DNA of 64,000 nt from an uncultured Gammaproteobacteria bacterium (lineage in GTDB: Bacteria; Patescibacteriota; Patescibacteriia; S139-126). A program made the position numbers and the translations under genes. Position 1 is the stretch's first letter; the number at the start of each line of letters is the position of its first letter. The stretch lies in contig CAZBLW010000002.1 of the NCBI GenBank assembly GCA_964493305.1, forward strand, positions 76,677 to 140,676, read 5' to 3'. The notes below the pieces were generated by a model, which had not been told where the DNA came from, did not search any database, and saw nothing but the letters and a program-made list of their open reading frames with translations. Positions 9,902 through 46,423 of this stretch are shown piece by piece.

Positions 9902-9950
9902 GAAATAAATTATTAATTACTAATGAATTTTTAATTCTAGATTCTTCACC

Positions 9951-9998: not shown

Positions 9999-10007
9999 CT
10001 AATTATC

Positions 10008-10082: not shown

Positions 10083-10182
10083 AGGTTATTATAATTATTA
10101 TTTTTTTAAAGCTTAGTCCCGCCACCAGGGCGGGATGCTCAATTTTGTATCTCCTCGCTTTGACTCGGAGACAAAATTGGCA

Positions 10183-10216
10183 AAGGCTGGTGTTCTATCC
10201 GTTGAACTACAGGGGC
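10183..10216 (-). repeat. Exact 34-nt duplicate of the 5' half (nt 1-34) of tRNA-Arg(TCT)
   Basis: aaggctggtgttctatccgttgaactacaggggc is identical to 10049-10082. The copy ends inside the anticodon loop. Confidence 0.8.
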
Positions 10217-10221
10217 TAAAC

Positions 10222-10342
10222 CTTATAAAAATATCTAAAAAATTGAGAAAGGTCAAGATAAATAATTATAAATTTTCAATTATAAATTATAAATGGACTA
10301 ATCTTGTGTTTATAATTTACAATTTATAATTTAAAATTAATT
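10222..10342. repeat. AT-rich direct and inverted repeats 'ataaattataaat' adjacent to the recombinase gene (possible arm-type sites)
   Basis: aattataaattttcaattataaattataaatgg and tttataatttacaatttataattt are reiterated between the tRNA fragment and the recombinase stop. Confidence 0.4.
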
Positions 10343-16204: not shown

Positions 16205-16350
16205 TAGGGATGTTGATATGTGGATAAGTTGTTAATAAATTTGCTAAATTTGAACAATTAAATTGTTCATTTTTTTTATAAAATAACCATTATTTATCGA
16301 CATATTTTTAAATTTATTTAATATTAGCCAAAATTAATAGTATAAATATA

Positions 16351-16379
16351 TTGACTTTTGCCAAAAATGGTGATATAAT
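16351..16379 (+). promoter_or_regulatory. Near-consensus sigma70 promoter with no downstream ORF
   Basis: TTGACT, 17-nt spacer, TATAAT. It sits in a 636-bp ORF-free gap. Confidence 0.5.
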
Positions 16380-16385
16380 AAAGAT

Positions 16386-16722
16386 ATAAAGTACTTTGCC
16401 AAAAAATTATTCCAAACCAATAATTTTGGAGTAATTTTTTCTCCCTAACCGGATTTTATGATCCGACCATAAGACAAAACAAAAACAAAAATTGAAAAAG
16501 GGACCATTTTCTACAAAAGAAAAGGAAAACCCACCAAGGTTAGGAAGTAAAAGCCTCAAGTCGGAACAGGCGTAAAACTGCCATTTTAAAGAAAATACAA
16601 ATATTTACTTAATAATTTAAGTGAAAATTTGTTCAAGAAATGGCAATAAACGCCGGAGTTACTCAGCCACATAATATTTTTATATATCAAAGGGCGCCGG
16701 TAACCCCGGCGTCTTTTTTATT
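16386..16722 (+). ncRNA. Candidate small noncoding RNA of about 340 nt between the orphan promoter and an intrinsic terminator (identity unknown)
   Basis: No ORF on either strand. It contains several hairpins (cggat..atccg; tgccattt...aaatggca) and six A-rich GGA motifs. It ends with the terminator gcgccgg taacc ccggcg TTTTTT. Confidence 0.35.
16692..16722 (+). terminator. Rho-independent terminator
   Basis: GC-rich stem gcgccgg/ccggcgtc followed by a T6 run. Confidence 0.6.
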
Positions 16723-16840
16723 TAATTTTATTATTATAACATAAAATTTATATTTTGTCAATAATTATTACCTACCTTTCCTGTTTTTTATTTATTAATT
16801 TGCTATAATATAGCTAGGAGAGGTTTTTTTATTTCTATTT

Positions 16841-23283: not shown

Positions 23284-23485
23284 GATTATATTTATTAACC
23301 TAATTATTAATAGATGATTAACTGATGATATTAATTAGTTGTAAAATTTTCTAATTTTCTAATTTTTAATTTTTTAAATAAATCTAAATTTTTAAATTTT
23401 AAAATTAGAAATTATTTAAGAATTATAAAATTTAAAAATTAAAAATTCATTAGATATTAGTAATTAGTAATTTATAATTTTTATT
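23284..23485. repeat. AT-rich palindromic intergenic repeat cluster ('aattttctaatttt', 'aaaattagaaatt' family)
   Basis: Visible inverted and direct repeats of ctaatttt / aaaattag units with no coding potential. Confidence 0.5.
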
Positions 23486-24085
23486 TTGATGGAAATTATT
23501 GCTTTAAAAAAAGTTAATTTGAATGATTTGGTAAAAAGATTAAAAGCCGGCGAGGTGTTAGTTTTGCCCACAGAAACAGTTTATGGACTAGTGGCTGATG
23601 CTACCAATAAAAAAGCTGTTAAAAAAATTTATCAAATAAAGGGGAGAAATTTCAATAAACCACTGCCGGTTATTTGTTCCTCACTCGCTATGGTTAGGAA
23701 TTTTTTTTATTTGCCCAAGGTTTTAGCTCAATTGGCACGGGAGTATTGGCCGGGTGCTTTGGCTATTAGATTTACAGTCAAAAATAAGTTATTAAAAGTA
23801 AGCCCTGATAATACTGTAGTAGCTAGGGTGAGTAGTTTTACTTTGCTCACTAGCTTAGCTAAAAAGTTAGATCGTCCTCTGACGGCTACCAGTGCCAATT
23901 TAGCAGGAAATCCTGAGTGCTATAGTGCTCAAGCGGTCAGTAAACAATTTAAAACAAAAAAATATAAACCCGATTTGATTGTTGATGGTGGGGTGAGACC
24001 GGTTATTAAACCATCAACTATTGTCGCTTTAGAAAAAGATCAGGTGGTAGTACTGAGACAAGGAGAGATTAAAATAAATTTTTAA
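23486..24085 (+). CDS. tsaC: L-threonylcarbamoyladenylate synthase (YrdC/Sua5/TsaC family)
   Basis: VLVLPTETVYGLVADA and LTATSANLAG motifs of the YrdC fold. Confidence 0.75.
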   Translation: MMEIIALKKVNLNDLVKRLKAGEVLVLPTETVYGLVADATNKKAVKKIYQIKGRNFNKPLPVICSSLAMVRNFFYLPKVLAQLAREYWPGALAIRFTVKNKLLKVSPDNTVVARVSSFTLLTSLAKKLDRPLTATSANLAGNPECYSAQAVSKQFKTKKYKPDLIVDGGVRPVIKPSTIVALEKDQVVVLRQGEIKINF

Positions 24086-24157
24086 TTTTTAAATTTTATA
24101 ATTTTGTAAATAATTTTTAAAAATTCAAAAATTAGAAAATTACAAAATTGATAAATT
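24086..24157. repeat. AT-rich palindromic intergenic repeat (same family as 23284-23485)
   Basis: aatttttaaattttataattttg...caaaattgataaatt. Inverted-repeat architecture. Confidence 0.45.
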
Positions 24158-24979
24158 ATGGATATTTCCGCGGCTACAGCTTATTTATTAAAACAGTATA
24201 ATCTTAAACCCCAGCACAGTCGGGGACAAAATTTTTTAATAAGTGAAAAAGTTTATGAACAAATCATAATCGCGGCTGAGCTTACAAAAAATGACATTGT
24301 TTTAGAAATAGGACCAGGACTCGGATTTCTTACCAGTAAATTGTTGGATCAAGCAGGTCGAGTGATTGCTGTTGAATCTGATCAACGCTTACTGCCGATT
24401 TTAAAAAATTTACAGCCCTTGAGTCCACATTTAGAATTGATCAATCAAGATATTTTGCAGTTTGCAGAGCAATCATTACCTAAAAATTATAAATTGGTCG
24501 GTAATATACCATATTATATTACTGGTAAGATTATCAGAAAATTTTTAACAAGTGTAAATCGTCCTAGTCTAATTGTAATGTTATTACAAAAAGAAGTGGC
24601 GGAAAGAATTTGTGCTCAAGCAGGACAGCACAGTTTATTGTCTTTGTCGGTGCAATATTATGGCACGCCAAAAATAGTAGCCCGAGTAAAAAGGGGAAAA
24701 TTTTTTCCACCGCCTAAAGTGGATTCAGCAATTTTGAAAATTGTCATGGATAAAGATATTGACCAGGTGTTGGAAAAAAAATTCTGGCAATTGGCTAGAA
24801 TAGGTTTTTCCAGCAAACGTAAAACTTTAGCTCACAATTTAGTAGCCGGATTGAAAATAGAAAAAAATACGCTTGGAGAGATATTTAATAAATTAGAATT
24901 TAAACCCTTAGTTAGGGCGCAGGAATTGGATTTAAAACAGTGGCAGGAGTTGGTGAAAGAGTTGGGATATAGGAACTAG
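24158..24979 (+). CDS. rsmA: 16S rRNA (adenine1518/1519-N6)-dimethyltransferase RsmA/KsgA
   Basis: HSRGQNFL motif, SAM-binding LEIGPGLG, NIPYYIT motif. 273 aa. Confidence 0.85.
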   Translation: MDISAATAYLLKQYNLKPQHSRGQNFLISEKVYEQIIIAAELTKNDIVLEIGPGLGFLTSKLLDQAGRVIAVESDQRLLPILKNLQPLSPHLELINQDILQFAEQSLPKNYKLVGNIPYYITGKIIRKFLTSVNRPSLIVMLLQKEVAERICAQAGQHSLLSLSVQYYGTPKIVARVKRGKFFPPPKVDSAILKIVMDKDIDQVLEKKFWQLARIGFSSKRKTLAHNLVAGLKIEKNTLGEIFNKLEFKPLVRAQELDLKQWQELVKELGYRN

Positions 24980-25053
24980 GAGTTAGGGGTTAGGGATGGG
25001 GTAGTTTATTAATTATTTTTCTATATCCTAAATCCTATATTCTAGTTCCTAAT
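24967..25053. repeat. Long imperfect palindrome overlapping the rsmA stop codon
   Basis: ataggaactag...ctagttcctaat arms of at least 9 bp, with an internal gttaggg/cctaaatcc pair. The TAG stop of rsmA lies in the left arm. Confidence 0.5.
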
Positions 25054-25906: not shown

Positions 25907-28900
25907 ATGCCAAAAAATAAGCTAGCTAAACATCAGAAAAAATTTAAAGTCAGATCTTTGTTTTTAGTAATTAGCTTATTTTTTGTTTTGGCTGGATTTA
26001 GTTTACCGATTAAAAATATTTTTGCTATTGGTATTCCAGCACCAACTCCAACTATAGAGTTGGTTAGTAAACCACAAATTGAAGTATCAATCGGTGAGAA
26101 AATTTGGTTTTTTGTAGAGCGGGCGGCTAAGATAGTTTATAAAAATGCTTTGGATTATTTTTTGCAAAGAATGGCCTATGATACTGCTACTTGGTTAGCC
26201 ACTGGTGACAAAGGACAAAAACCGCTTTATTGGGAAGAAGGTATTGGTGCTTATATCAGAGGCATTGGCGATGAAGCCATTGGCAAGGGTTTAGATGAAC
26301 TTGCTCAAGGTACCTTTGGGGTGAGTTTGTGCGAACCATACAATGCCAATATAAAATTGCAGTTGATTTTACAAACCAAACAAGCTTTTGAACCGCAACG
26401 CGCCACTTGTACTTTCAATGATATTTTAAAAACCAAATTGTTGAATGTGAGTGTCAATGGCCAAAAGCCTGATTTGCGTTTATTGGATAGAGAAAACTTT
26501 CATCTTTTAGCTCAATATTTTAATCCCAACTCCAATGAATTGGGAGCGCAATTTATTTTGTATTCCAATATCAGTACCAAAAGAGCTGAGGATGAAAAAA
26601 TGGCTACTTTGATAAGATCAATTGAAGCTGATGTCAAAAGTTTAAAATCACCCATTGGTGATTTGGGATTTGAAGGTATTAAGACACCAGCACTTGATAT
26701 TAAAAATTGGTTGGGAGCAACAGCCGAAAAATCAGTTGATTCTGGTTGGACCACACTGACTGGTGATATTGCTGCTGATGCTTTGCGTACTTTTACCAAT
26801 ACTTTGGCCTCGAAATTCTTGCAACGTTTACAAAAGGGAGTGTTGTCAGGGAAAGGCGGTGCTACTGGTGGCGGACCGCGTGATTTTGCCAGTTCTTATG
26901 CAACCAGGGGAGCTGATACGAGTTACGCTGAATTTATTATTCCTTCTTTCCGGGGTGGGGGTAGTATTGACGTTTTGGGTAAACTGTCATCATGTCCACC
27001 AGAAAATCAAGCCCGGTTGTTTGATAATTGTATTATTGATAGCCGATTAGCCACCGCTATCGATCAAGGTTTGACTGTAAGACAAGCCATGGAACAGGGT
27101 TATTTGGATGCCAATAAACCTTTTGGTTTTTTGGCTGATGGTAGTGAACCTTCTTATACCAATGGTTACCCTTATCGCAGTTTGGTATTTATGAGAAAAT
27201 ACAGAATTATACCAGTGACTTGGGAATTAGCAGCTCTGTATATCAAAGACATAAACACTACCAATGATACTTTTACTCTAGCGCAAATCATGGGTACTCC
27301 GGGAGATAATTTTCAAGCTTTTAGTTCCTCGACTTCACCATTTTATCATTTGATTGATCCCAATTGGGTACTGAAATTACCAGAATACGAGTGTCGAATT
27401 GAAGGGCCAGGCCCGCAAGTAACACAAAGAATCAATGTCCAAGCTGAAGTGGCCGATGGTTTTGGTGGGACCATCACTGTCAATGAAGAATCTCTACAAA
27501 GATCTGATTATTGCGCTGACGAACAAACTTGTATTGCGCAAAACCCCAATGGTACTTGTCAAAAGTACGGTTATTGTACTAAAGAAAGAAGCACTTGGAA
27601 TTTTCAAGGACAAGCCTGTTCCCCGCAGTTTGCAACTTGTGAAACTTATGCCAATAGCAAAGGTGATAAGTCTTCTTATTTAGCTGCCACTTTGGAAACT
27701 TGTGATGCCTCACAGGTTGGTTGTCGTTGGTACAGTATGTACAAAACTCCGAGCGACTTTTGGGCCGATGATATTTGGAATCAAGTTGCCAATACTTTTG
27801 GAAGTGATAACCAAATTACTTTTGGTGATGTTTACAACCGGACAGATTTGGGTGATATAAGTTATGCCAGATATTTCAACAATCAAATTAAAACTTGTAC
27901 GGCCAAGGATGAAGGTTGTAATAAATTTATCGAACTAACCAATATCTCAGCACCGGATGGTTATGAAGCTACTACCCAATCAATTTTTCAATATGTCCAA
28001 AATAACCAAGGTGTTTATGCGGAAGCTGGTATTTTAAATTCGTATGGCGAGTGGGGTTTGGTACAAGAAAAAAATATGAAAGCTGCCCCCAGTTATCTCA
28101 ACTGCCCAACGGACATCAATGATCCCAATCGAGACTCTCGGTGTGACAATTACGCGCAAAGTTGTACCGCGGCTGAGGTTGGTTGTAGTTTATATACACC
28201 CATTAATGGTGATCCGCCCGTGCCAGCGGTATTGGGTAACAATGATTATTGTAGTGCATCTTGTGTTGGTTATGATCAATATTTGGAAGTACCAACTTAT
28301 TTTGAAAGGCGGGCTAACCCCGTAGCATCTCCAGTTATTGAAAATATTATCCCTGCTTCAGCTACCAGTTGTCGTTTGAGTGATGTGGGCTGTGAACAAT
28401 TTACCAATTTAGATGAAGTTGCTCAAGGCGGTGAAGGCATTCGCTATTTCAGTTTTATCAGAGAATGTATTTTGCCCAACGATCCGGCAGCCAAAGTTTT
28501 CTATACTTGGGAAGGTAGTGATACCTCTGGTTATCAGTTGAAGACTTGGCGCTTGCAATCTGCCGGTGGTGGAGCTCCCACGGGTGATAGTTGCGATCCG
28601 GCTGATGACCCACTAAATTGTCGGACTTTTATTGACGCCGAAGGTACCAGTTGGTCCAGAGATATTATGACCGTTACTTATGCCACTGATGATTGTCATC
28701 CGCTGAGACGAACAGTTGATTCCAGTGTTATTTATGGTATCGAGTCATTTAGTCGGTCCTGTCGGGCTGAAGCGGTGGGCTGTAAAGAATATCGGGGAAA
28801 TCAAGGCAATGTAGTGACCATTGTGGTAAATGATGATTTTGAATCAGGTACGAGTGAAGGTTGGATCAACGGCTTCAACTCCAGTGAATCGGTTTATGTG

Positions 28901-31900
28901 GGCGGACATTCTATGCAAGTTGTTGGTACTAGAACTCTAAAACAAGTAAACAACCTTATCACTAAAGATAAAAATTATACTATTTCTTTTTGGGCAAGAA
29001 GTTCAGGAGCCTCTGCCAATTTATCATTTGAAATTCAAGCCTATCAGAATAATAGCATTACAAAGACAGAGAATAAGATTTGGTCATTTATAGATGCAGC
29101 TCAAGCACAAGTTATTCAGTTTATAGATCTAGTACCTGTTGCTGGTTCGCAACGAAGTTTTGGTAGTGTCAGTTTGACTGATGAATGGCAGTATTACCGA
29201 TTGGGACCAGTAAATTTTGATCGGGCGGTTAATACTTATGAGTTTTTACAAACCAATGCCACCAATGTGTATCTCGACAATATCATTATGCGGGAAGTCA
29301 CTGATAGTTATTATTTGATTGCTGATTCTTGGGAAACGCCAGCTATTTGTAATCAGCCTTTTGTCGGTGCGCAACTGGGTTGTCAGGCTTATCGTGACAC
29401 AAGAGGCAATGAAATTGATTTACTTGGTTTCACCGCTTTGTGTAGTGATTCTAAGGTTGGTTGTAAAGCGATGATTGATACCAAAAATTCCAACTCACCC
29501 TTTAGCCAGAATTTCAATACCGGCAACAATGCTTTTTCTGATCCGCAGGGGCTTGATGATGTGACAGTACCAGCTGATAATATAGTTTATTTGGTTGATG
29601 ATCAGGATAAATATTGTTCCAGTCAGTTTGCTGGTTGTACCTTAGCTGGTGAAGCTATTTTGGACCGTCAATCAGATGGCACGGTAGTTGCTTTCAACGA
29701 TAAGTTTATTATTGATAGTCCGGAAAATTACAATACCACTATGTGTGGTGTGGGTGGACTTTATTGTGAACAATATACTAGCGAACGCACTGGCGCCACC
29801 ACTTACTTAATCAACCCCGGCAATCGTACTTGCGAATATAAATTGTTACCCGGTAGAACTTCAGCCAATTGGTACCAAAGCGGTACAGAAACTCTTTGTG
29901 AACAATTACAAGATTATCCCATACAACCAATTGCAGCCACTGATCCCAATTATGATGGTTGGGTAGGTATGTGCTCATCGGAAGCCATGGGTTGTAGTCA
30001 ATATGTTGATCCTGAAGGTGATCCGGATATTACCAAGAGTTCTTATTTCTACTTAGAACAATCAGTCAACACCGCTGCTTGTAATGGCTTGGTTGATCGG
30101 GAGCGCGGTTGTCGGTTATTCAACAAACTTGACGGCACACCGCAAGCCTTTACCGCCAACGCCTATACCCCAGCTACGCCCGATGGTAGTGTACCTCTAA
30201 GCAGTCCCAATGCCGCGGAAAATAGTGCCAATATAATTTTACAAGTACAAAAAGATCGAGCTTGTGATGAGTGGTTGTATTGTAAGACAAGGATAGAATC
30301 TTATGATACTGAGGGCAACCGCGATGATAAATGTTTTGATATCGGAATTTGCGATGGCTTAAATGATAGCGGTGAGTGTAATAGTTTCCCAGTACTTCCT
30401 AATACAGAAATTGTTGGTCAGCAAATTAGTGGAGCTACTGGTTATACTAATCCCTATACTGTAGAAGATTTACGACTTATGAGTGGTTATACCAAAGCGG
30501 GTATGAGTTGGTCAGGTTTTGCCAGTGGCAATGGTACTACTCCTGGTTATTTACCATATAACTTAATGACTCAAGTCGGCAATGAAGCTAATATTTTATA
30601 CAACCCAAGTTTTGAAGAAACTATTACTACCAATCAGCCCCTGCAATCACCATTTCCTTATTGGGATACTGCTGGTTCAAATTGTAATACCAATAGTACT
30701 TGTCGAGTAATGCCTGACAGTCAATCAATATCAGGTATAAGAGCAGCAAAAATTTCAATTAATCCCAATAATGCTAGTGCAGGTAATAGTAATGTTTTCT
30801 TGAATCAACCATTGTCATTGTCACCTTCGGAATATATTTTGTCAGGTTTAATTAGGTGGGAAAATATTACCACTGGGAATAATAGCGCTGGTGCTAATAT
30901 TAGAATTTTGCAAGGTAGTAACACATTAGCTGAATTTGGACCAAGACAAGATTATAGTACGGGAGGTTGGCAGTCATTTTCTATTAAGTTTAGCAATACA
31001 GCCAATAACGTGACTATCAGGGCCGAACTATTAAATATCAGAGAAGGATCTGTATTTGTTGACGGTTTGACTATCCTACCAGCTTTGCAGGTAATGAATG
31101 CGCCAGAAACATTAGTTAGTCAGCGTTGCCGTTTGTATCCGGAAAGTTCATCGCCTGAATGTAATTATGTAAAAGGCACAAAATCATATGTTGGTTGGCC
31201 AGGTTTTTGTGCCGAAGTAGACCCGAGAAACCCCAGCTATTGTGTGAATTGGTGGCCGATTGATATTATCAAAGGTTCAGTAGCTCAAATCAACGAGCGA
31301 CCTTTGGTGTTTGGAGAAAAAGTACCTCTTTATTTTTGCGAAGTTTCGTCTGGTAATGAAAGCTCTAATCCAAATTGGGGTTTTTATGCACACAATGATT
31401 ATAAACTAAATGCTGTCAGAGGTGCTTTTGTACCTTTTTATCCATCATATGTAGGACAAAGACCTTTTATATTTGAAAATAATAGTTGCGCAAATTGGTC
31501 CGGTATACAGAATGGGGTACAATTCACCATTGGTGGTTGTTCAAGGGGTGATGGTACTAGATATATGTTTGGCGATATAAACAATACACCTGAAAATAAA
31601 TATTTTGAATATGATATAGAAAAAATAATTTTGAGGAAAACTTCAACTCGCGGCGAGTATCCTGACCGTGTAACTCTGACTAATGCACATAGATTAACTA
31701 AAGCTCAGGTAGCAGCTACTATAGATACTGCTATGGCTAACGGTATGGCTGATAATGAGTTTGCCTGGGTAGCTGATTGTGGTTATAGAGATTCACAAGA
31801 AGATAAACCAGTTCCCAATTCTTGTAGTGGTTCTGATGATTATTTAAAGTTCGGAGTAATTTTTACAAATCAAGGTCAACCACGTGCATACTTTATTTTT

Positions 31901-32977
31901 ATGGATGATTATAGTGGTTCTGGTAGTGATGCAGCTGGTTACGCAGTAGATTATTATTTACGTGAATCGTGTACTGTTTTAGCTAAAGTGGGACAAGTTG
32001 AGCCAAATGGTGATATAAATACTTATCCTTATTGGACGAGAGTTGATCAATTTAGCGGTTACAATGTAACACCCCTTGATTATAATTATATAAAGGACAG
32101 TGTGCCTTTTGGCTCAGTTTACCAAAGTGGCTTATCTCGTTATTTCCAGGATGGTTCAAATCAGTTGCAAAATGAAAACAGTCCTTCTACTTGGGACTCA
32201 CGACCAACAGAACCAGGTAATCAGCCAATTTATGTAGAAGCTGAAAATACTTTGACTATAAATGATGGATCATTAAATCCCGGACCAAATATCAGAGCTG
32301 GTACACCTTATGCTTGTTACAATGGTAGTTGTGTTGGATCTGTTTGTGTGGGTGGATCTAGAGAGGGTACTTTATGTATTGATGATGAAACTGCTAAGAG
32401 TTGTTATATGGGCGATGGTTTGAATACTGGTATTTGTGTTGGTTCTTGGCAAACACCAAATCCAATGCCCAATACTGATACAGTATCGGCTAGAAATAGT
32501 TTGAGTCAATTGTTTATCAGGTCACTTGCTGAGTATCGATGGCAATTTGAAAATGGCGCTTGGCGTTATGTGGAAGTGGTTGGAGGGGGATGGAATAATA
32601 TTGGCGCCAGTGTGTTACCACAGATTGGAAATATTTTAATAAATAATACTTCCTCGACAGTCAGTTTGCCAGATGGTGGTACAGTCAAACTTAGTTTCAC
32701 TACCAATATCGCCAATGACCAACTGCCTTTGCGGAGTTACAACATCAATTGGGGCGATGGTTCAGCCAATACTACAGTTCAAGGTTATTTCAATGAACGA
32801 CCTAGTGCAGGTGATCCTCATATTTTGTATCATTCATATACTGGCACCACTAATCCATCGGTTAATTATAATATTACTATCCAAGTGATGGATAATTGGG
32901 GATATGGTGCTACGCCACAAAGATATGGTCAAGGTGTCTTCAATAACGCAGTTTGTGTTGGCGCCAGCTGTCCGTAA
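25907..32977 (+). CDS. Giant secreted Cys-rich surface protein (2356 aa) with reiterated 'GC(K/S/E)xY/F' modules and a C-terminal PKD-like domain
   Basis: N-terminal signal/TM segment. More than 70 cysteines in periodic motifs (GCRWYS, GCNKFI, GCSLYT, GCEQFT, GCKEYR, GCQAYR, GCKAMI, GCTLAG, GCSQYV, GCRLFN). C-terminal ...YNINWGDGSANTTVQGYF...HSYTGTTNPSVNYNITIQVMDNWG resembles PKD. Confidence 0.6.
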   Translation: MPKNKLAKHQKKFKVRSLFLVISLFFVLAGFSLPIKNIFAIGIPAPTPTIELVSKPQIEVSIGEKIWFFVERAAKIVYKNALDYFLQRMAYDTATWLATGDKGQKPLYWEEGIGAYIRGIGDEAIGKGLDELAQGTFGVSLCEPYNANIKLQLILQTKQAFEPQRATCTFNDILKTKLLNVSVNGQKPDLRLLDRENFHLLAQYFNPNSNELGAQFILYSNISTKRAEDEKMATLIRSIEADVKSLKSPIGDLGFEGIKTPALDIKNWLGATAEKSVDSGWTTLTGDIAADALRTFTNTLASKFLQRLQKGVLSGKGGATGGGPRDFASSYATRGADTSYAEFIIPSFRGGGSIDVLGKLSSCPPENQARLFDNCIIDSRLATAIDQGLTVRQAMEQGYLDANKPFGFLADGSEPSYTNGYPYRSLVFMRKYRIIPVTWELAALYIKDINTTNDTFTLAQIMGTPGDNFQAFSSSTSPFYHLIDPNWVLKLPEYECRIEGPGPQVTQRINVQAEVADGFGGTITVNEESLQRSDYCADEQTCIAQNPNGTCQKYGYCTKERSTWNFQGQACSPQFATCETYANSKGDKSSYLAATLETCDASQVGCRWYSMYKTPSDFWADDIWNQVANTFGSDNQITFGDVYNRTDLGDISYARYFNNQIKTCTAKDEGCNKFIELTNISAPDGYEATTQSIFQYVQNNQGVYAEAGILNSYGEWGLVQEKNMKAAPSYLNCPTDINDPNRDSRCDNYAQSCTAAEVGCSLYTPINGDPPVPAVLGNNDYCSASCVGYDQYLEVPTYFERRANPVASPVIENIIPASATSCRLSDVGCEQFTNLDEVAQGGEGIRYFSFIRECILPNDPAAKVFYTWEGSDTSGYQLKTWRLQSAGGGAPTGDSCDPADDPLNCRTFIDAEGTSWSRDIMTVTYATDDCHPLRRTVDSSVIYGIESFSRSCRAEAVGCKEYRGNQGNVVTIVVNDDFESGTSEGWINGFNSSESVYVGGHSMQVVGTRTLKQVNNLITKDKNYTISFWARSSGASANLSFEIQAYQNNSITKTENKIWSFIDAAQAQVIQFIDLVPVAGSQRSFGSVSLTDEWQYYRLGPVNFDRAVNTYEFLQTNATNVYLDNIIMREVTDSYYLIADSWETPAICNQPFVGAQLGCQAYRDTRGNEIDLLGFTALCSDSKVGCKAMIDTKNSNSPFSQNFNTGNNAFSDPQGLDDVTVPADNIVYLVDDQDKYCSSQFAGCTLAGEAILDRQSDGTVVAFNDKFIIDSPENYNTTMCGVGGLYCEQYTSERTGATTYLINPGNRTCEYKLLPGRTSANWYQSGTETLCEQLQDYPIQPIAATDPNYDGWVGMCSSEAMGCSQYVDPEGDPDITKSSYFYLEQSVNTAACNGLVDRERGCRLFNKLDGTPQAFTANAYTPATPDGSVPLSSPNAAENSANIILQVQKDRACDEWLYCKTRIESYDTEGNRDDKCFDIGICDGLNDSGECNSFPVLPNTEIVGQQISGATGYTNPYTVEDLRLMSGYTKAGMSWSGFASGNGTTPGYLPYNLMTQVGNEANILYNPSFEETITTNQPLQSPFPYWDTAGSNCNTNSTCRVMPDSQSISGIRAAKISINPNNASAGNSNVFLNQPLSLSPSEYILSGLIRWENITTGNNSAGANIRILQGSNTLAEFGPRQDYSTGGWQSFSIKFSNTANNVTIRAELLNIREGSVFVDGLTILPALQVMNAPETLVSQRCRLYPESSSPECNYVKGTKSYVGWPGFCAEVDPRNPSYCVNWWPIDIIKGSVAQINERPLVFGEKVPLYFCEVSSGNESSNPNWGFYAHNDYKLNAVRGAFVPFYPSYVGQRPFIFENNSCANWSGIQNGVQFTIGGCSRGDGTRYMFGDINNTPENKYFEYDIEKIILRKTSTRGEYPDRVTLTNAHRLTKAQVAATIDTAMANGMADNEFAWVADCGYRDSQEDKPVPNSCSGSDDYLKFGVIFTNQGQPRAYFIFMDDYSGSGSDAAGYAVDYYLRESCTVLAKVGQVEPNGDINTYPYWTRVDQFSGYNVTPLDYNYIKDSVPFGSVYQSGLSRYFQDGSNQLQNENSPSTWDSRPTEPGNQPIYVEAENTLTINDGSLNPGPNIRAGTPYACYNGSCVGSVCVGGSREGTLCIDDETAKSCYMGDGLNTGICVGSWQTPNPMPNTDTVSARNSLSQLFIRSLAEYRWQFENGAWRYVEVVGGGWNNIGASVLPQIGNILINNTSSTVSLPDGGTVKLSFTTNIANDQLPLRSYNINWGDGSANTTVQGYFNERPSAGDPHILYHSYTGTTNPSVNYNITIQVMDNWGYGATPQRYGQGVFNNAVCVGASCP

Positions 32978-37196: not shown

Positions 37197-37324
37197 AAAT
37201 AAAAATTATAAATTATCAATTTTAAATTTTAAATGAATTATAAAATTATTAAATTTTAAAATTGATTAATAATTGATAATTTAAAATTAATAATTATTTA
37301 AATTTATCTGCTATAATAACTAGT
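37197..37324. repeat. AT-rich palindromic intergenic repeat (ttatcaattttaaat / aaattttaaaattgattaataattgataa)
   Basis: Inverted repeats of attgataat/attatcaat and aattttaaatttt units. It ends in TATAAT, 7 nt before the next ATG. Confidence 0.5.
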
Positions 37325-38500
37325 ATGGAAGAACAAATACCAAAAAATATAAATGAAGAAAAATTAGATCTTGATGTTTCTGATGAAATTGTAGTCAAAG
37401 ATGAACAAGGTAATTTTCGAGTTTTAATCGGTGGTAGGTTGGAAGATTTACCAGCCGGTTTTGAAGTAGTAGAGAAAAAACCAACCGCGCCATCTAGTGA
37501 ATTATTTACCCAAGAAGGTTTAGTTAGCGAAGAAGAGTCAGCTGAACAATTAATGCCACCACCTCCGACTATTTGGCAAAAACAAGCTGGAGCGGCATTT
37601 TATTTTCATCCTGATGATGAAGAAGAAGTCAATCAAATTGCCGCAGACAAAGGTCTGGAAGCAAAAATTGATTTAGATCCAGCGGTTGATGAAATTATTA
37701 CCTTGAGTGGCGTCAGGCTTGCCAGTGAAAACAGCACAAAAAAAGTAAAAAATATCTTACTTGCCCGACTGAAACATGTTAGAGAGCAGGCAGAAACCAG
37801 AGATGCTCTGACTAGGTCAATGGCTGAAGGTGGAGCTGGTTTAAGTGAATCTGAAGCTGATGTTCTGATGTCTTTAGTGACGGAAAAAATTGAACAAATT
37901 GAAGCTGGTAAATATTCGCCACCAGCATCTTCGGAACTGGATAATTTAATAAAACAAGCTGACGATGTTTATAAATTCAATGAAGCAGATCAAGGACCGC
38001 ATGATAGATTGGCTGACACTTTAGCTCAAGTTAAACCAGAATTTACCCACCAACCCCAATGGCAAGAACCGGAGATAAAACAAGCTCCTAGTGAAATAAT
38101 AAATCCACCCCGTCCCAAAAGACCAATTCCAACAGATGTGAGACCAAGAGTGAGTGATGTTAGACCTATAGAAAGGGTGCGGGGACCGATTGAAGAGTTG
38201 AAATATATGAATTTAGCTGAGCTTCATCGTATCGGCACCAGTGCTTTGGATAATATTAGTCATATCAAGGATAAGATTGATGCACTAGAAGAAGAATCTT
38301 TCAACAAGAAAGTTGAAGGTATCAAAGCTTGGCGCCAATCACCACTTTATAATATGTATTTGGATATTGGCCGACAAAGTATGGAACAGGGAAAATCAAT
38401 CAGCCAAGTGATTAGAGAGCGAGAGCAGTTGGGCGAGGATATTTTATCAGTACAAGAGTTTGAAAAAATATCGGATTTGAATCAAGAGTTGAGGTATTAG
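37325..38500 (+). CDS. Acidic hypothetical protein (391 aa)
   Basis: Glu/Asp-rich with predicted coiled coil. Its stop codon is donated by the downstream palindromic repeat. Confidence 0.4.
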   Translation: MEEQIPKNINEEKLDLDVSDEIVVKDEQGNFRVLIGGRLEDLPAGFEVVEKKPTAPSSELFTQEGLVSEEESAEQLMPPPPTIWQKQAGAAFYFHPDDEEEVNQIAADKGLEAKIDLDPAVDEIITLSGVRLASENSTKKVKNILLARLKHVREQAETRDALTRSMAEGGAGLSESEADVLMSLVTEKIEQIEAGKYSPPASSELDNLIKQADDVYKFNEADQGPHDRLADTLAQVKPEFTHQPQWQEPEIKQAPSEIINPPRPKRPIPTDVRPRVSDVRPIERVRGPIEELKYMNLAELHRIGTSALDNISHIKDKIDALEEESFNKKVEGIKAWRQSPLYNMYLDIGRQSMEQGKSISQVIREREQLGEDILSVQEFEKISDLNQELRY

Positions 38501-38529
38501 CTTATGGCTTATGGCTTTTAGCTTTTAGG
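38497..38529. repeat. REP-like repeat, left-arm type (TTAGCTTATGGCTT...TTAGCTTTTAGG)
   Basis: A member of the 'agcttatagctt' family. It pairs with 38881-38917 on the other side of the four-helix-bundle gene. Confidence 0.55.
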
Positions 38530-38538
38530 TAGAAGAAA

Positions 38539-38901
38539 ATGGTAGAATCATATAAAGAATTGATAGTTTGGCAAAAAGGAATGGATTTAGTAGTTGCCAC
38601 ATATAAATTAATTGGTAAATTTCCTAAAGAAGAAATATTTGGATTGTCGATGCAGATGAAAAGGTCAGCAGTTTCAATCTCATCCAATATAGCTGAAGGC
38701 AGAAATAGAGGTACTAGAAAAGATTTTATTTATTTTTTAAGAATAGCATACGGATCTGGAGCTGAGTTGGAAACACAAATCGAGTTATCAAAAAGATTAT
38801 TTAATATAACATCAGAGAGTTATGCTGAAGTAGACGAGTTATTAATAGAAGTGATGAAAATGCTTAATAAAATGATAGCTAAGCTACAAGCTAATAACTA
38901 A
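38539..38901 (+). CDS. Four-helix-bundle protein ('23S rRNA intervening-sequence protein' family)
   Basis: MVESYKELIVWQKGMDLVVATYKLIGKFPKEE...SSNIAEG...FLRIAYGSGAELETQIELSKRL is characteristic of this family. The gene is embedded between inverted REP-like arms. Confidence 0.7.
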   Translation: MVESYKELIVWQKGMDLVVATYKLIGKFPKEEIFGLSMQMKRSAVSISSNIAEGRNRGTRKDFIYFLRIAYGSGAELETQIELSKRLFNITSESYAEVDELLIEVMKMLNKMIAKLQANN

Positions 38902-38917
38902 AAGCTATAAGCTAATT
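38881..38917. repeat. REP-like repeat, right-arm type (AAGCTACAAGCTAA...AAGCTATAAGCTAAT)
   Basis: Reverse complement of the left-arm motif. It ends ...taattacc immediately before the PrgI-like ATG. Confidence 0.55.
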
Positions 38918-38920
38918 ACC

Positions 38921-39364
38921 ATGCAACAATTTTTAGTCCCACAATTTATTGATGTTGAAAGTAAAATATTAGGCCCAATCACCGTCAGACAATTTGTGAT
39001 TATGATCGTAGTGATGGGAGCTTTGTTTACTTATTTTAAGACCTTGGATTTTTCCGGATTTTTACTGGCTTCAATTTTTACTGTTGCCCTGGGAGCAGCT
39101 TTTGGTTTTTTAAAAGTCAATGGTGCCCCTTTTCATATTTTTTTACTCAATGTTATCCAAACTATCATGCGCCCATCTTTACGGGTGTGGGCCAAAGACA
39201 ATGCTACTTTAGCAGATAAACAACCAGATACTGACAAAAAAGAAGATGATTTATTGAATACTGTAAAAGTTATCAAATCGCCTGTTAAACAAATAAATTC
39301 CACGCGACTATCGGAATTATCTTTAGTAGTAAATACAGGCGGTTATTATAAAGGAGAAAACTAA
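38921..39364 (+). CDS. PrgI/VirB3-like small membrane protein of Gram-positive-type T4SS
   Basis: MQQFLVPQFIDVESKILGPITVRQFVIMIV... matches the PrgI-family N-terminal signature (VPQ.ID.E.KI.GP.T.RQF). Two TM helices. Immediately upstream of VirB4. Confidence 0.5.
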   Translation: MQQFLVPQFIDVESKILGPITVRQFVIMIVVMGALFTYFKTLDFSGFLLASIFTVALGAAFGFLKVNGAPFHIFLLNVIQTIMRPSLRVWAKDNATLADKQPDTDKKEDDLLNTVKVIKSPVKQINSTRLSELSLVVNTGGYYKGEN

Positions 39365-40049: not shown

Positions 40050-40126
40050 TTTTAGTTGTTAGCTTTTAGCTTTTAGATAAATACAATTAAGAAGTCATAA
40101 GCTAAAAGCCAAAAGCTATAAGCTAA
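40050..40126. repeat. REP-like palindromic element (left arm ttagttgttagcttttagcttttag; right arm ctaaaagccaaaagctataagctaat)
   Basis: A long hairpin lying exactly between the two VirB4 pieces. It ends ccctaattacc before the ATG, the same junction as at 38921. Confidence 0.6.
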
Positions 40127-40138
40127 TCCCTAATTACC

Positions 40139-42031
40139 ATGTTTAACCCCAAACAAGCCTTACAAAAGAAGAGACCAGTCAAACAAATACTTTCTCGTCG
40201 TGAGCAGGCAGAAGTTGAGGTAGAAAAAACTTTGGATGAAAAACAGTTGTTGGAAGCAGAAAAAGTATTTCGTGAAGGCACCATAAAAATTCGGGATATT
40301 ATCGCCCCGGCTGCTTTCAAAGTCACTCCATCGTATTTGGAATTGGGATCAAAATTTGTCCGCAGTATTTTTGTGATTAATTATCCTCGATATATTTCAG
40401 TAGGTTGGTTTGCGCCAGTAATTAATTATTCTGCCACTATGGATATTGGAATGTTTTTTTATCCCATTCCAGCTGAAGTAGTTTTGAAGCAATTGAAAAA
40501 TAAAGTCGGTGTGTTGGAAGCACAACTTATTGCGGATGCCGAAAAAGGCGCTCCCCGTGATCCAATCCGAGAAACAGCTTTGCAGGATATTGAAAAATTG
40601 CGCGATGATCTTACTCAAGGTATAGAAAAATTTTTCCAATACGCATTGTATGTCACGATGTATGCCAACTCCAAAGATGAGCTGGATAATTTAACAGAAA
40701 AAATCGAATCATTATTTGGGGGTAAACTGGTCTATACCAAAAGAACATTGTATCAAGCCGAACAAGGATTCAATTCTACTTTACCTTTGGGTAATGACGA
40801 ATTGATGATTTCATTTAATATGAATTCTTCACCAGTGGCTTCTTCTTTTCCTTTTATATCTTCAGAGTTAACCAGTGATGAAGGTATACTTTATGGTATC
40901 AATCGTCATAATAACAGCCTGATTTTATTTGATCGATTTTCTTTACAAAATGCCAATTCGGTCGTATTTGCCACATCGGGTGCTGGTAAAAGTTATGCTA
41001 TCAAACTCGAGGTATTGCGCAGTTTGATGATGGGTACTGATGTAATAATTATTGATCCAGAAAAAGAGTATAAGCATTTGTCCGATGCGGTCGGGGGAAC
41101 TTATATTAACATTTCACTTTCTAGCGATAGTAAAATAAATCCCTTTGACCTACCGCGTAAAGTTGATGATATGAAGCCAGCAGACATTATCCGCAGTGCT
41201 GTTATAACCCTCAAGGGTTTAATGAGACTCATGCTTGGCAATCTTACCCATCAGGAAGATTCAATTATTGATCGGGCACTGCTGGAAACTTATGCCAAAA
41301 AAGACATTACTCCAAGTTCGGATTTATCTCAGGTTGAACCACCTTTGATGTCTGATTTTGAAGAAGTATTATCCGGTATGGAGGGGGGAGATGATTTGGT
41401 CTTGCGTTTGAAAAAATATACGGAAGGTACTTTTTCCGGTCTGTTCAATAGCCCTACCAATATCGATTTAGACAATCAATTAATCACTTTTTCCGTTAGG
41501 GATTTGGAAGACGAGTTAAGGCCAATAGCAATTTATACCATTGTCAATTATATTTGGAACATTGTCCGATCAGAGTTGAAAAAAAGAATTTTAGTTATTG
41601 ATGAAGCTTGGTGGCTGATGCAAAATGATGATAGCGCCAAATTTATTTATGCTTTGGTAAAACGTTGTCGTAAATATTATCTAGGTGTTACCACCATTAC
41701 CCAGGATGTAAATGACTTTTTACGCAGTCCTTATGGTCAAGCAATTGTAACCAATTCATCTTTGCAACTTTTACTTAAACAATCACCCGCTTCAATCGAT
41801 GTAGTTAAAAAGACTTTTATGTTGACTGAAGGTGAAAAATATTTGTTACTGGAGTGTGGTGTTGGTGAGGGTATATTTTTTGCCGGCTCTAAGCACGCAG
41901 CTATAAAAATTGTGGCTTCCTATACTGAGGATCAGTTGATTACCTCTGATCCTAAACAGTTATTGGAAATCGAAGAAGCTAAAAGAGAATTCAATCGTCA
42001 GCAAAAACAAGCTGAAGAGATGGAGATTTAA
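40139..42031 (+). CDS. virB4: VirB4/TraC/PrgJ-family T4SS ATPase
   Basis: IAPAAFKVTPSYLELGSKFVRSIFVINYPRYISVGW region. Walker A ATSGAGKS. Walker B ILVIDEAWW. 630 aa. Confidence 0.8.
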   Translation: MFNPKQALQKKRPVKQILSRREQAEVEVEKTLDEKQLLEAEKVFREGTIKIRDIIAPAAFKVTPSYLELGSKFVRSIFVINYPRYISVGWFAPVINYSATMDIGMFFYPIPAEVVLKQLKNKVGVLEAQLIADAEKGAPRDPIRETALQDIEKLRDDLTQGIEKFFQYALYVTMYANSKDELDNLTEKIESLFGGKLVYTKRTLYQAEQGFNSTLPLGNDELMISFNMNSSPVASSFPFISSELTSDEGILYGINRHNNSLILFDRFSLQNANSVVFATSGAGKSYAIKLEVLRSLMMGTDVIIIDPEKEYKHLSDAVGGTYINISLSSDSKINPFDLPRKVDDMKPADIIRSAVITLKGLMRLMLGNLTHQEDSIIDRALLETYAKKDITPSSDLSQVEPPLMSDFEEVLSGMEGGDDLVLRLKKYTEGTFSGLFNSPTNIDLDNQLITFSVRDLEDELRPIAIYTIVNYIWNIVRSELKKRILVIDEAWWLMQNDDSAKFIYALVKRCRKYYLGVTTITQDVNDFLRSPYGQAIVTNSSLQLLLKQSPASIDVVKKTFMLTEGEKYLLLECGVGEGIFFAGSKHAAIKIVASYTEDQLITSDPKQLLEIEEAKREFNRQQKQAEEMEI

Positions 42032-42036
42032 TAAAT

Positions 42037-42102
42037 CAGCTTTTAGCTTATAGCTTTTAGAAGGTTAAAACTACAAGCTATAAGCTACAAGCTATAAGCT
42101 AA
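42037..42102. repeat. REP-like palindromic element (cagcttttagcttatagcttttag ... ctacaagctataagctacaagctataagctaaaa)
   Basis: Same repeat family, forming a hairpin of at least 20 bp after VirB4. Confidence 0.6.
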
Positions 42103-44693: not shown

Positions 44694-45965
44694 ATGAATA
44701 GAAAAAAAATTATACAAATTATTATTTTTGCAATCATTGTTGTTGGTTTGGCGTATTTACTTTGGTCAATGTTTTGGCAACCTGAAGGGCCAGTAACTCC
44801 TACTGATACTCCGCCTGGTCAAACCGGACAATTACCTGATATTGGTGAAGGTCCGCCTGCGGGAGTAGTAATTGATCCGATTACGGGATTACCTATTTCT
44901 GGTGAAGTAGTACAACCTGGCGGGCAAACATCTACTACTACTGGCCAACCTACTACCAATCAACCAACTATTAGTGATCGGGCGATTGGCGGTTTAACCA
45001 CAGCCAAAACGGTGGTGAATAAAGATATCTTAGGGATTAAACCAATTGGTGATGGTAAAAGTTTCAATTATTATGATACAGCTGACAATAAATTTTATCG
45101 TTTAACAGCCAGTGGCGAAGTCCAAGCTTTGTCAGATAAAAGGTTTTTCAATGTCGATTCTGTTGCCTGGTCGCCAGACGGCAATAAGGCAATTTTGGAA
45201 TACCCTGATAGTACCAATATTTTTTACGATTTTACTCAAGATAAGCAAGTTACCCTGCCACGACAAATGACCGAGTTTAATTTTTCTCGGGGTGGCGAAA
45301 ATATTGGTTTTAAGTGGCAGTCAGATTTACCCAATGATGACTGGCTAGGTATAGCTACTCCCGATGGTAGCGAAATAAAATTTATTGAACCTATGAACAA
45401 TGCCGAAGAAGATGTACAGGTTGCTTGGTCGCCGAATAATCAAGTAATTGCTTTTTACAGGGAGGGTAAAGGATTGAATCAGTCCGAAGTATACTTGATT
45501 GGACAATATGGTGAAAATTTTAAATCTTTAGCTGTTCAAGGGAGAGGTTTTGAAGGCGAGTGGTTGGCTGATGGTAAGAATGTATTGTATCAAATATATT
45601 CAGATGCTTCAGGTTCTAGACCGATGCTGTGGGTTACGCGGGCTGATGGGGATAATATTGGATTAAATAACAATTCTTTAGGTGTACAAACCTGGCTGGA
45701 TAAATGTGCTATTTCTGGTGCCAGTGCTTATTGTGCAGTGCCAGAATATTTACCGGAGGGAGCAGCTTATGTTCCTGAAGTAGCTGATACGATTCCTGAT
45801 TTGTTTTACCGGATCGATTTAACCACTGGTGCTAAAACGCTACTGGCTAAACCAGTTGGCGATTTATCACAGTACACCGCTAGTCAAGTGATGGTTTCGC
45901 AAGATGAAAGTGAACTTTATTTTGTCGACAAAGCCACTGGTGGACTTTATAGTATAAATCTTTAG
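44694..45965 (+). CDS. Membrane-anchored beta-propeller protein (TolB/WD40-like 'SPDG' repeats)
   Basis: N-terminal TM, Pro/Thr/Gly linker, repeated AWSPDGNKAILEY / AWSPNNQVIAFY blades. Confidence 0.45.
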   Translation: MNRKKIIQIIIFAIIVVGLAYLLWSMFWQPEGPVTPTDTPPGQTGQLPDIGEGPPAGVVIDPITGLPISGEVVQPGGQTSTTTGQPTTNQPTISDRAIGGLTTAKTVVNKDILGIKPIGDGKSFNYYDTADNKFYRLTASGEVQALSDKRFFNVDSVAWSPDGNKAILEYPDSTNIFYDFTQDKQVTLPRQMTEFNFSRGGENIGFKWQSDLPNDDWLGIATPDGSEIKFIEPMNNAEEDVQVAWSPNNQVIAFYREGKGLNQSEVYLIGQYGENFKSLAVQGRGFEGEWLADGKNVLYQIYSDASGSRPMLWVTRADGDNIGLNNNSLGVQTWLDKCAISGASAYCAVPEYLPEGAAYVPEVADTIPDLFYRIDLTTGAKTLLAKPVGDLSQYTASQVMVSQDESELYFVDKATGGLYSINL

Positions 45966-46023
45966 AATTTTTAATTTTTAATTTTATAATTTTTCAAATA
46001 ATTTTTAATTTTTAAATAATAAA
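45966..46023. repeat. AT-rich inverted repeat (ttttaatttttaatttt), left flank of the four-helix-bundle cassette
   Basis: Its reverse complement, aaaattaaaaatta, occurs on the other side of the 46024 gene. Confidence 0.45.
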
Positions 46024-46362
46024 ATGAAATATGACCTTGAGGAGAGGGTCGCTAAATTTGGAGAAGAAACTATTAAGTTTATAAGATTAGTACAAAAAGA
46101 TATAGTAGTTTCTCCAATTATTACCCAGTTAATAAAATCAAGTACTAGTATTGGAGCTAACTATATGGAAGCCAATCAAGCTAGTTCAAAAAAAGATTTT
46201 AAAAATAAAATAAGAATTTGTCAAAAAGAATCCAACGAAATAAAACATTGGCTGAGAATGCTAGCGGTTGCCACCCCAAATCATAAAGAAAAATGTAAAC
46301 AGTTATGGCAAGAAGCTCATGAATTAACTCTCATATTTGCCAAGATTTCTAAGAATATTTAA
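46024..46362 (+). CDS. Four-helix-bundle protein (23S rRNA IVS-protein family), second copy
   Basis: ...TSIGANYMEANQASSKKDFKNKIRICQKESNEIKHWLRML... is the family signature. 112 aa. Flanked by inverted AT-rich repeats. Confidence 0.65.
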   Translation: MKYDLEERVAKFGEETIKFIRLVQKDIVVSPIITQLIKSSTSIGANYMEANQASSKKDFKNKIRICQKESNEIKHWLRMLAVATPNHKEKCKQLWQEAHELTLIFAKISKNI

Positions 46363-46423
46363 GTTTAAAAATTTTGATTTATTTATAAAATTAAAAATTA
46401 CAAAATTATAAAATTTATTTATT
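46363..46423. repeat. AT-rich inverted repeat (aaaattaaaaattacaaaatt), right flank of the four-helix-bundle cassette
   Basis: Complementary to the 45966-46023 flank. Confidence 0.45.

Follow-up and report, generated by a model that had tools for sequence, protein, structure and literature searches.

The stretch of DNA considered here, 64,000 nucleotides of contig CAZBLW010000002.1 (the window; 36% G+C), encodes proteins whose nearest relatives come from metagenomes of Patescibacteria or the candidate phyla radiation (CPR), and it carries two small genes of the four-helix-bundle (4HB) protein family PF05635/TIGR02436, a family known from the intervening sequences (IVSs) of 23S rRNA. Each gene is enclosed in a cassette of constant order: a 5' tandem array of about 7-nt units, a short leader, the 4HB open reading frame (ORF) and a reverse-complement 3' array. 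The cassette fills the spacer between co-directional genes, starting 0-3 nt after a stop codon and ending a few nucleotides before the next start. The window holds no third PF05635 copy and no rRNA, an Rfam scan yielding tRNAs only. The initial annotation, made from the sequence alone, had placed both genes (38539-38901 and 46024-46362) within inverted repeats, and closer analysis bears this out, the arms being complementary at 27/33 and 38/49 positions.

Two hairpin cassettes in operon spacers

The first cassette occupies 38496-38916 of the plus strand. Its 5' arm (38496-38528) comprises about 4.6 tandem heptamers, GCTTATG GCTTATG GCTTTTA GCTTTTA G, the first of which holds the TAG stop codon (38498-38500) of the upstream 391-aa gene. 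The ORF of 120 aa (38539-38901) follows, and the 3' arm (38884-38916), built of (YAWAAGC)n heptamers that complement the 5' arm, takes in the final five codons and the stop of that ORF and ends 4 nt before the start codon of PrgI (38921). The arms, (GCTTWTR)n and its complement, are thus 33 nt each and lie 355 nt apart. Against an expectation of 3.0, the window matches the GCTTWTR pattern 26 times, a number reached in 0/100 shuffles, and in the predicted fold of the whole-element RNA an arm-to-arm stem closes both the minimum free energy (MFE) and the centroid structures (z = -2.1). These arms had been described in the initial annotation as repetitive extragenic palindromic (REP)-like; the bracketing repeats stand but the REP class does not, the arms being tandem heptamer arrays. 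A stretch AAGCTATAAGCTAAT(...)TACCATG is shared by 38905-38923 and 40109-40141, ahead of both PrgI and VirB4, and from this common arm-to-start sequence it appears that the downstream gene takes its translation-initiation region from the hairpin.

The second cassette (45966-46419, plus strand) begins right after the TAG stop codon (45963-45965) of a PD40-repeat gene with a 5' arm and leader (45966-46023) of (AATTTTT)n-type heptamers, followed by the ORF of 112 aa (46024-46362) and a 3' arm (46363-46419) of AT-rich heptamers. The best inverted-repeat segments, 45968-46016 and 46364-46412, are 49 nt each and include exact 14-mers at 45999-46012 and 46387-46400. The 3' limit of 46419 is that of a block of 93% identity shared with a related locus (L170; compared loci are cited by such numbers) and lies 4 nt before the start codon of a DsbA-like gene (46424). 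Taken singly the two flanks are poor hairpins (-2.3 and -8.4 kcal/mol). In the whole-element fold the arm-to-arm stem is present in the MFE and centroid structures, with z = -4.3 matched by 0/100 shuffles.

Copy 2 has arms of almost pure A and T, and the genome has 36% G+C, so that AT-rich spacers of low complexity might be thought complementary by chance. This explanation was tested and rejected, and retains virtually no probability: besides the fold of copy 2, the flank inverted-repeat scores of copies 1 and 2 are 15 and 19, and 4HB genes as a whole have a median score of 13-14, where mispaired flanks and the flanks of 188 other genes both have 7. Moreover the arm sequences are conserved across genomes and contexts.

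Assignment of both proteins to the family is secure against the PF05635 cut-off of 33.8 bits (copy 1, E 1.9e-36, 125 bits; copy 2, E 4.5e-13, 49.8 bits) and the TIGR02436 cut-off of 24 (122.7 and 63.7 bits), and the two are 23% identical to one another. An AF2 model of copy 1 (pLDDT 93) has helices at 5-25, 36-57, 60-87 and 92-118, and Foldseek aligns it with 2gsc (XCC0516; TM 0.84, rmsd 1.1 A) and 2rld (BT_0352; TM 0.80), PDB entries of five chains each, the solved relatives being homopentameric rings. The conserved motif of helix 2 has been given as GxxRxxxSxxxNxxE (PMC3936711); copy 1 carries it as R42-S46-N50-E53 (KRSAVSISSNIAEG), the counterpart of R/KxxxSxxxNxxE in copy 2 is KSSTSIGANYME, and in alignment A1 no variation is seen at S49, N50, E53 and R57 of copy 1. 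Each protein search, limited in the number of matches listed, gave more than 4000 relatives. Both ORFs are maintained by purifying selection, as their substitution patterns show (omega 0.1-0.2). A tblastn search of 50,697 phage records gave no match, and PADLOC assigned the 4HB protein to no defence system.

Flanks across the protein family

The setting of the two genes proves to be the usual state of the family outside rRNA in many phyla. Eighty loci encoding relatives of copy 1 (44-71% identical, one genome per species) were fetched from Patescibacteria, Bacteroidota, Clostridia, Gammaproteobacteria, Acidobacteriota, Planctomycetota, Nitrospirota and other groups. By eye, inverted tandem arrays surround nearly all 80, with a unit that is genome-specific and arms that are still complementary. 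Complementary flanks, defined as an inverted-repeat score of at least 12 within 100 nt, accompany 62% of 90 family members as against 1.3% of 1966 other ORFs of 70-220 aa. In the genome sample the median score of 76 4HB genes is 13, compared with 7 for the 188 other genes and 7 for mispaired flanks (Mann-Whitney p ~1e-25 against either). An Rfam scan of 40 of the 80 loci placed none of these 40 in an rRNA gene.

Of 64 strong arrays, 56 repeat best at a period of 7 or 14, six at 8 and two at 9. The 5' arms are G/T-rich, TAG occurring 125 times and CTA 24 times, and the 3' arms are their mirror image. In 39% of cases the 3' arm begins inside the ORF or at its stop codon, which explains the variable C-termini of the family (for example ...KLQAKS before the stop). 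A host-determined set of "house repeats" was considered as the source of the arms and ruled out, since two elements of one genome differ in their arms (in the window and in L091); it is also contradicted by the finding that one subfamily keeps its own arms across hosts.

A few genes of other kinds were seen in comparable flanks. In L130 (9034-9460) a GxxExxY gene (TIGR04256, PF13366; PD-(D/E)XK-like) lies in the same kind of hairpin between a homologue of the 391-aa gene and PrgI, a junction occupied in the window by a 4HB gene, and an ORF-less hairpin with units of the GxxExxY hairpin occurs at TraC/VirB4 of the same locus. The GxxExxY gene may be an alternative cargo; this is the only such case in the fetched loci. 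In L105 (3517-3982) an ORF of 154 aa with an IS200/RAYT-like HxH motif (NHLHIVMQ; RAYT, REP-associated tyrosine transposase) has complementary flanks (score 19) and may represent a REPtron-like element in a related genome, its family being assigned by motif only. An ORF family of about 187-190 aa with the motif ...WxxVIFDIP/VxExR... also has complementary flanks, with scores of 15-22 (L104:3316-3880, L109:3108-3672, L116:19366-19939).

Movement of the cassettes

Comparison of related genomes shows that the cassettes have been gained, lost, replaced and relocated between junctions and between genomes over evolutionary time. Eighty related clusters resembling the type IV secretion system (T4SS) of the window were collected by means of the TraC-like protein (54-94% identical). 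The 4HB gene is present in only about nine of them, at three different junctions; an ORF-less hairpin of lineage-specific unit is found at 18-32% of junctions, depending on the junction, and most hold neither. Since gene and hairpin are both missing from these junctions in most of the related clusters, the operon evidently does not need the cassettes. A fixed, vertically inherited 4HB-PrgI operon pair, suggested by PrgI lying directly downstream in 7 of the 80 family loci, is ruled out by the few 4HB genes and three junctions found in the clusters sampled through TraC.

L170 (GCA_964620905.1) has the gene order of the window, but its copy-2-type cassette is found at the 450-aa/391-aa junction instead of the junction of the PD40-repeat and DsbA-like genes, and each of the two genomes shows only an ORF-less AT-rich hairpin at the cassette site of the other. 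The cassettes (454 nt; window 45966-46419, L170 9943-10396) share 93% nucleotide identity with sharp limits of homology at the outer ends of the arms, which differ at about 4 of 115 positions, as compared to 70-77% nucleotide identity in BLAST alignments of the flanking regions. Synonymous-site divergence (dS) is 0.35 for the ORF (omega 0.10), as against 1.03 for TraC-like and 1.40 for VirB4 genes. With L173, where the cassette is at the same junction as in the window, dS of the copy-2 ORF is 0.10; for L088, a locus of the same genome, the TraC-like and VirB4 values are 0.99 and 1.08. The last 240 nt of copy 1 give dS 0.40 and omega 0.18 between window and L088, and PrgI gives 1.07. Arrangements of the window and of the L170 type are each repeated in independent assemblies.

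Replacement at a single site is seen in L104 and L109, whose flanking sequences agree at 98-99% for 9 kb on the upstream side and 5 kb on the downstream side. The spacer from the preceding stop codon to the start of PrgI nevertheless holds non-homologous cassettes in the two (L104:9270-9506, L109:9082-9506). One of the pair is an intact copy-1-type gene with GAATAAC arms; the other, with AT-rich arms, is what is left (237 nt) of a 4HB gene of another subtype after internal deletion. Genes of the copy-2 type (70-97% protein identity) occur in four unrelated contexts, PD40/DsbA, 450-aa/391-aa, dprA/comM-like and pfkB/ahcY, and keep the arms AATTTTTAATTTTTAATTTTATAATTTT and TTATTTATAAAATTAAAAATTA in all of them; the left end falls 0-3 nt past the upstream stop codon in 5/5 such insertions. 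The arms are therefore part of the element, being kept with the ORF across unrelated sites and exceeding in conservation the synonymous sites of the ORF. Population variants of one locus (L175 and L178, about 2842-2912) differ by the loss of most of the 3' arm, which alters the called start of the downstream comM-like gene (506 vs 513 aa).

The initial annotation had suggested that the protein travels with a small palindromic element, a view that the family-wide flanks, the sites empty of the gene (some with an ORF-less hairpin) and the linkage of arms to protein all support. It had also regarded unrelated flanks between copies as telling against such an element; the arms of the two window copies are indeed unrelated, yet each subfamily has arms of its own, and this particular comparison does not discriminate.

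Hairpins without a gene

Hairpins that bear the same arms and no ORF, as well as truncated intermediates, exist alongside the cassettes, and in the window nine ORF-less hairpins accompany the two that bear a gene (all are given without strand). Those with copy-1-type (GCTTWTR) units lie at 40052-40126, the TraC-like/VirB4 junction (arms 25 nt, 21/25 complementary, loop 25 nt); at 42038-42093, between VirB4 and the next gene (arms 23 nt, 21/23 complementary, loop 10 nt), where heptamers run on to about 42103; and at 49825-49929, the 3' end of radA (arms 38 nt, 31/38 complementary, loop 29 nt), where the radA stop codon (49839-49841) is inside the 5' arm. AT-rich heptamers form hairpins at 37201-37298 (arms 47 nt, 37/47 complementary), in the 450-aa/391-aa junction that is the site of the copy-2-type cassette in L170, and at 10260-10342 (arms 34 nt, 29/34 complementary), right after the stop codon of a tyrosine recombinase gene. 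AT-rich repeat hairpins occupy the LeuRS/Sua5 (23348-23445) and Sua5/KsgA (24074-24159) junctions, a hairpin of G-rich heptamers (GAGTTAG GGGTTAG / CCTAAAT CCTATAT) at 24970-25051 has the KsgA stop in its 5' arm, and one of AATTACT / TCATTAG units lies beside a tRNA gene (53279-53358). Orthologous ORF-less hairpins have nearly identical arms, with insertions or deletions of whole 7-nt units, and loops that cannot be aligned; at 40052-40126 the arms and not the loop are conserved in L088 and L170. The PrgI/TraC junction has a hairpin of about 47 nt in L088 as compared to a 1-nt spacer in the window. At the gathering threshold Rfam gave no match at the repeat hairpins of the window.

The location of the hairpins at gene ends, and the presence of one behind many genes in this genome, might suggest that they are ordinary terminators or attenuators, with the 4HB genes merely lying between two of them. 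This is highly improbable, since no heptad hairpin of the window is terminator-like or followed by a T-run, as an intrinsic terminator would be, since the hairpins stand inside tightly packed co-directional operons, and since the flanks of both 4HB genes pair with each other and not with themselves.

The ratio of nine ORF-less to two loaded hairpins also lends itself to a different explanation, in which a REP-like or MITE-like repeat (MITE, miniature inverted-repeat transposable element) is moved by an enzyme encoded elsewhere, be it a transposase of the RAYT/IS200 type or a tyrosine recombinase that works on folded hairpins, and the 4HB gene is tolerated cargo. The hairpin-borne GxxExxY gene of L130, at a junction that carries a 4HB gene in the window, the tyrosine recombinase gene of the window and the IS200-like ORF with inverted-repeat flanks in L105 are all in keeping with such a passenger. 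This reading is nonetheless quite unlikely, since the cargo comes overwhelmingly from one family (such flanks accompany 62% of 4HB genes and 1.3% of other small ORFs), since arm sequences are specific to each 4HB subfamily whatever the host, since purifying selection acts on the ORF, and since the window has neither a RAYT nor target-site duplications.

Relation to known elements

The cassette setting was predicted for the crystallised protein XCC0516 and then found at its orthologues in X. citri (L196:1430-1875) and X. campestris (L197:1430-1875), which lie between accB and accC and are flanked by GGGAATC GGGAGTG GAGAATG GGGAATC and its reverse complement. The N-terminus of the orthologue, MENGESAKRP, is apparently encoded by the 5' array from a GTG start. 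On plasmid pANA02 of Anabaena sp. 90 (L169:1130-1960) a 4HB gene separates cas6 from cas4; (GGTGACA/GGGAACA)n runs for about 300 nt upstream of it and (CTGTCAC)n lies downstream, and the 3' array has been annotated as the N-terminus of Cas4. An "association" of 23S_rRNA_IVP with cas loci has been published (PMC3936711, PMC10910872), for which cassette insertions may be the source.

Closest in kind is the 23S rRNA IVS of Leptospira, Coxiella burnetii, Brucella and Xanthomonas, with which the window elements share the protein family, an ORF inside terminal inverted repeats, a long stem, 5' tandem heptamers and a size of about 430 nt. The Coxiella IVS is 428 nt long with a 28-bp terminal inverted-repeat stem and has tandem GACAGAT heptamers upstream of the S23p ORF, at the first of which RNase III cuts (PMC4990558). 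IVSs have long been suspected to be selfish or mobile (PMC4990558), and S23p-type ORFs occur at scattered sites in CPR rRNA genes (bioRxiv 10.1101/2024.02.27.582315). Unlike IVSs, the window elements are found in spacers of protein-coding genes and not within a helix of 23S or 16S rRNA, and genome comparison here documents relocation, replacement and horizontal spread. Unlike the Coxiella ORF, which is reported to be decaying, the ORFs of the window are under purifying selection. Excision by RNase III is a feature of IVSs for which the 25-50 bp stems of the window would be long enough in principle.

Heptanucleotide repeats of cyanobacteria (short tandemly repeated repetitive, STRR, sequences) have been known since 1990, and those of Xanthomonas and Beggiatoa were recognized later. 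The GGGAATC (Xanthomonas) and GGGGA(C/T)T (Nostoc) heptamers are intergenic and have been described as quadruplex-forming, with 70 convergent GGGAATC pairs in X. campestris (PMC4692102), and Beggiatoa has TAACTGA heptamers (PMC4679880). The arrays of the window resemble STRR and GGGAATC repeats in being intergenic tandem 7-nt units, often in convergent pairs, with positions that are conserved between species, and the arms of the Xanthomonas 4HB gene are of exactly the GGGAATC type. Studies of these repeats have treated them as G-quadruplex or regulatory motifs with no tie to mobile elements or to the 4HB family, whereas here they are cassette arms; the GGGAATC study found no link to mobile elements, and the XCC0516 gene is not mentioned in it (PMC4692102).

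As with REP/RAYT elements (REPtrons) and MITEs, the window has short, abundant intergenic palindromes of which gene-less copies far outnumber those bearing a gene, and MITEs also have terminal inverted repeats. Unlike REPs, the arms are tandem arrays of variable unit number rather than a fixed palindrome; unlike REPtrons and MITEs, the enclosed gene encodes a four-helix bundle and not a Y1 or DDE transposase. No PF01797-type RAYT is found among the window ORFs, in contrast to a REPtron, and terminal inverted repeats without target-site duplication set the cassettes apart from MITEs and insertion sequences. Nor do they resemble integron cassettes, since the flanks pair with one another and do not form a self-folding attC, and the sole tyrosine recombinase is 27 kb away.

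The accessory protein Avd of diversity-generating retroelements (DGRs) is a pentamer that acts in a nucleic acid-protein complex. The 4HB protein has the same fold (TM ~0.77 to 4dwl and 8ub7), and distant sequence kinship is indicated by PF22296 (28.5 bits) and by one PHROG Avd family. It differs from Avd proper in scoring 26.4 bits for NF033474 against an equivalog cut-off of 80, and the setting differs from that of a DGR in that the window has no reverse transcriptase domain and no template or variable repeats nearby.

Interpretation and proposed mechanism

It thus appears probable that the two copies are hairpin cassettes of the IVS type, some 420-455 bp long, that reside in operon spacers and not in rRNA. 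Coxiella being the nearest studied relative, the window elements are read as the same kind of element as its IVS, placed in operon spacers. The cassette would be co-transcribed with the operon and its arms would pair in the transcript, closing the ORF in a loop; the 25-50 bp stem could then be cut by RNase III, as for the Coxiella 23S rRNA IVS of the same family, a processing by which insertions would be tolerated in operon spacers as well as in rRNA helices. With a repeat period not divisible by 3 and TAG in the unit, a stop would fall in every frame, so that the upstream gene ends cleanly wherever the cassette lands and damage is limited. That the ORF is so strongly constrained implies that its protein is of some use to the element or the host. 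Binding of the repeat arrays by a pentameric, Avd-like 4HB protein, serving maintenance or copying of the element, is the most economical guess in view of the pentameric ring and the relationship to Avd.

Several observations weigh against the IVS-type mobile cassette. About 38% of family members lack clear complementary flanks inside 100 nt, and units with TAG are a tendency, absent from the Xanthomonas GGGAATC and from some AT-rich units. No target-site duplication is seen at the ends of five copy-2-type insertions, and the window has no reverse transcriptase, IS200/RAYT or DDE transposase, its only recombinase being the Xer-like tyrosine recombinase at 10343-11317. Two exact proteins, found in 35-37 contigs, occupy one locus each across dozens of samples, from which it follows that the elements are fixed within populations and that movement is rare; movement could in principle be homologous exchange between related genomes. 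Arm mismatches read on the sense strand (59 G.T vs 94 A.C) have no G-U-compatible excess, and this wobble test therefore lends no support to an RNA stem as the selected feature, a hairpin at the DNA level being possible as well. Finally, S23p of Coxiella is apparently not made and is decaying (PMC4990558), so that any role of the protein in spread of the element is conjectural.

Some of the same evidence bears on a resident regulator, in which the 4HB protein would be a host RNA- or DNA-binding regulator, the heptad arrays its operators and mobility incidental. Arrays around its own gene would then serve autoregulation, and ORF-less hairpins would make up a regulon controlling processing or translational coupling, for example of the T4SS-like cluster. 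The TRAP ring, which binds spaced GAG triplets, provides a model for such operator-like arrays. Strong purifying selection on the ORFs (omega 0.10-0.18), fixed loci across many samples and the placement of hairpins exactly between a stop and the next start codon are all consistent with regulation, as are the clustering near the loaded copy of same-unit ORF-less hairpins in which arms are conserved and loops drift, and the preference of the 5' arm for TAG (125 vs 24 CTA) and not for any stop, which suggests recognition of a motif. The homopentameric rings of solved relatives, and the action of Avd inside a ribonucleoprotein (PMC4990558), also fit. Against this stand the occurrence of one cassette at different junctions in related genomes with dS far below that of host genes, the non-homologous cassettes at one site in nearly identical strains, and the unrelated contexts (accBC, cas operons, dprA, ahcY). 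Incidental mobility of a host regulator is accordingly considered unlikely, while regulation as the role of the protein for its element is compatible with the cassette reading.

A wider proposal, put forward tentatively and regarded as doubtful in its full extent, is that heptad-hairpin cassettes are a hitherto unrecognised and very widespread class of transposase-less mobile element, in which the pentameric 4HB ring binds the 7-nt arrays that flank its gene and draws on recombination or polymerase functions of the host to copy the cassette into other spacers and rRNA helices. Decayed copies would then give rise to the heptanucleotide repeat families (STRR, GGGAATC, TAACTGA) and to the cas-operon "association".

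Parts of this picture are already known, namely ORF-bearing IVSs with inverted repeats, their suspected mobility, members of the family outside rRNA, and heptamer repeat families. A link of the non-rRNA family copies to inverted heptamer arrays was not found in the searchable full text, from which subscription journals are mostly absent, so that an earlier description is possible. With that scope, four points appear to be new: inverted heptad arrays as the general setting of the family across phyla; arms and ORF as one unit that relocates and is exchanged between genomes; ORF-less heptad hairpins as derivatives or targets of the cassettes; and the flanking of XCC0516 by the Xanthomonas GGGAATC repeats.

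Other features of the window

The housekeeping genes of the window include those for S15, PNPase, LeuRS, KsgA, Sua5, RadA, RecG and LexA, and the T4SS-like cluster comprises PrgI, TraC-like, VirB4 and T4SS-pilin genes. Directly upstream of that cluster are ORFs of 2356 aa (with a weak CBM_4_9 match) and 924 aa (25907-32977), an order that is kept in related loci. Two gene-free stretches, 16205-16840 and 54091-54542, have strong predicted folds (-151 and -165 kcal/mol) with terminator-like ends and no credible Rfam match even at E <= 1, and could be divergent or novel non-coding RNAs. A stretch of about 32 nt (GGCTGGTGTTCTATCCGTTGAACTACAGGGGC) of the tRNA gene at 10011-10082 (minus strand) is apparently repeated, as judged by eye, about 150 nt further on, on the plus strand. 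This repeat (region 9902-10342) adjoins the tyrosine recombinase gene at 10343-11317 and may be an integration scar.

Implications for the protein family

To our knowledge PF05635/TIGR02436, a very large and near-ubiquitous family with solved structures, has no known function outside DGRs. It now gains a defined genetic context, that of a moving cassette with its own repeat arms. As regards annotation, arms are translated into the ends of neighbouring ORFs, and long arrays could be mistaken for other classes of repeat. Three puzzles are joined, those of the ORF-bearing rRNA IVSs, of the heptanucleotide repeats and of the 4HB genes scattered in essential operons (accBC) and in cas operons, and since Xanthomonas unites the crystal structure, the repeats and the genetics, the reading is testable in one organism.

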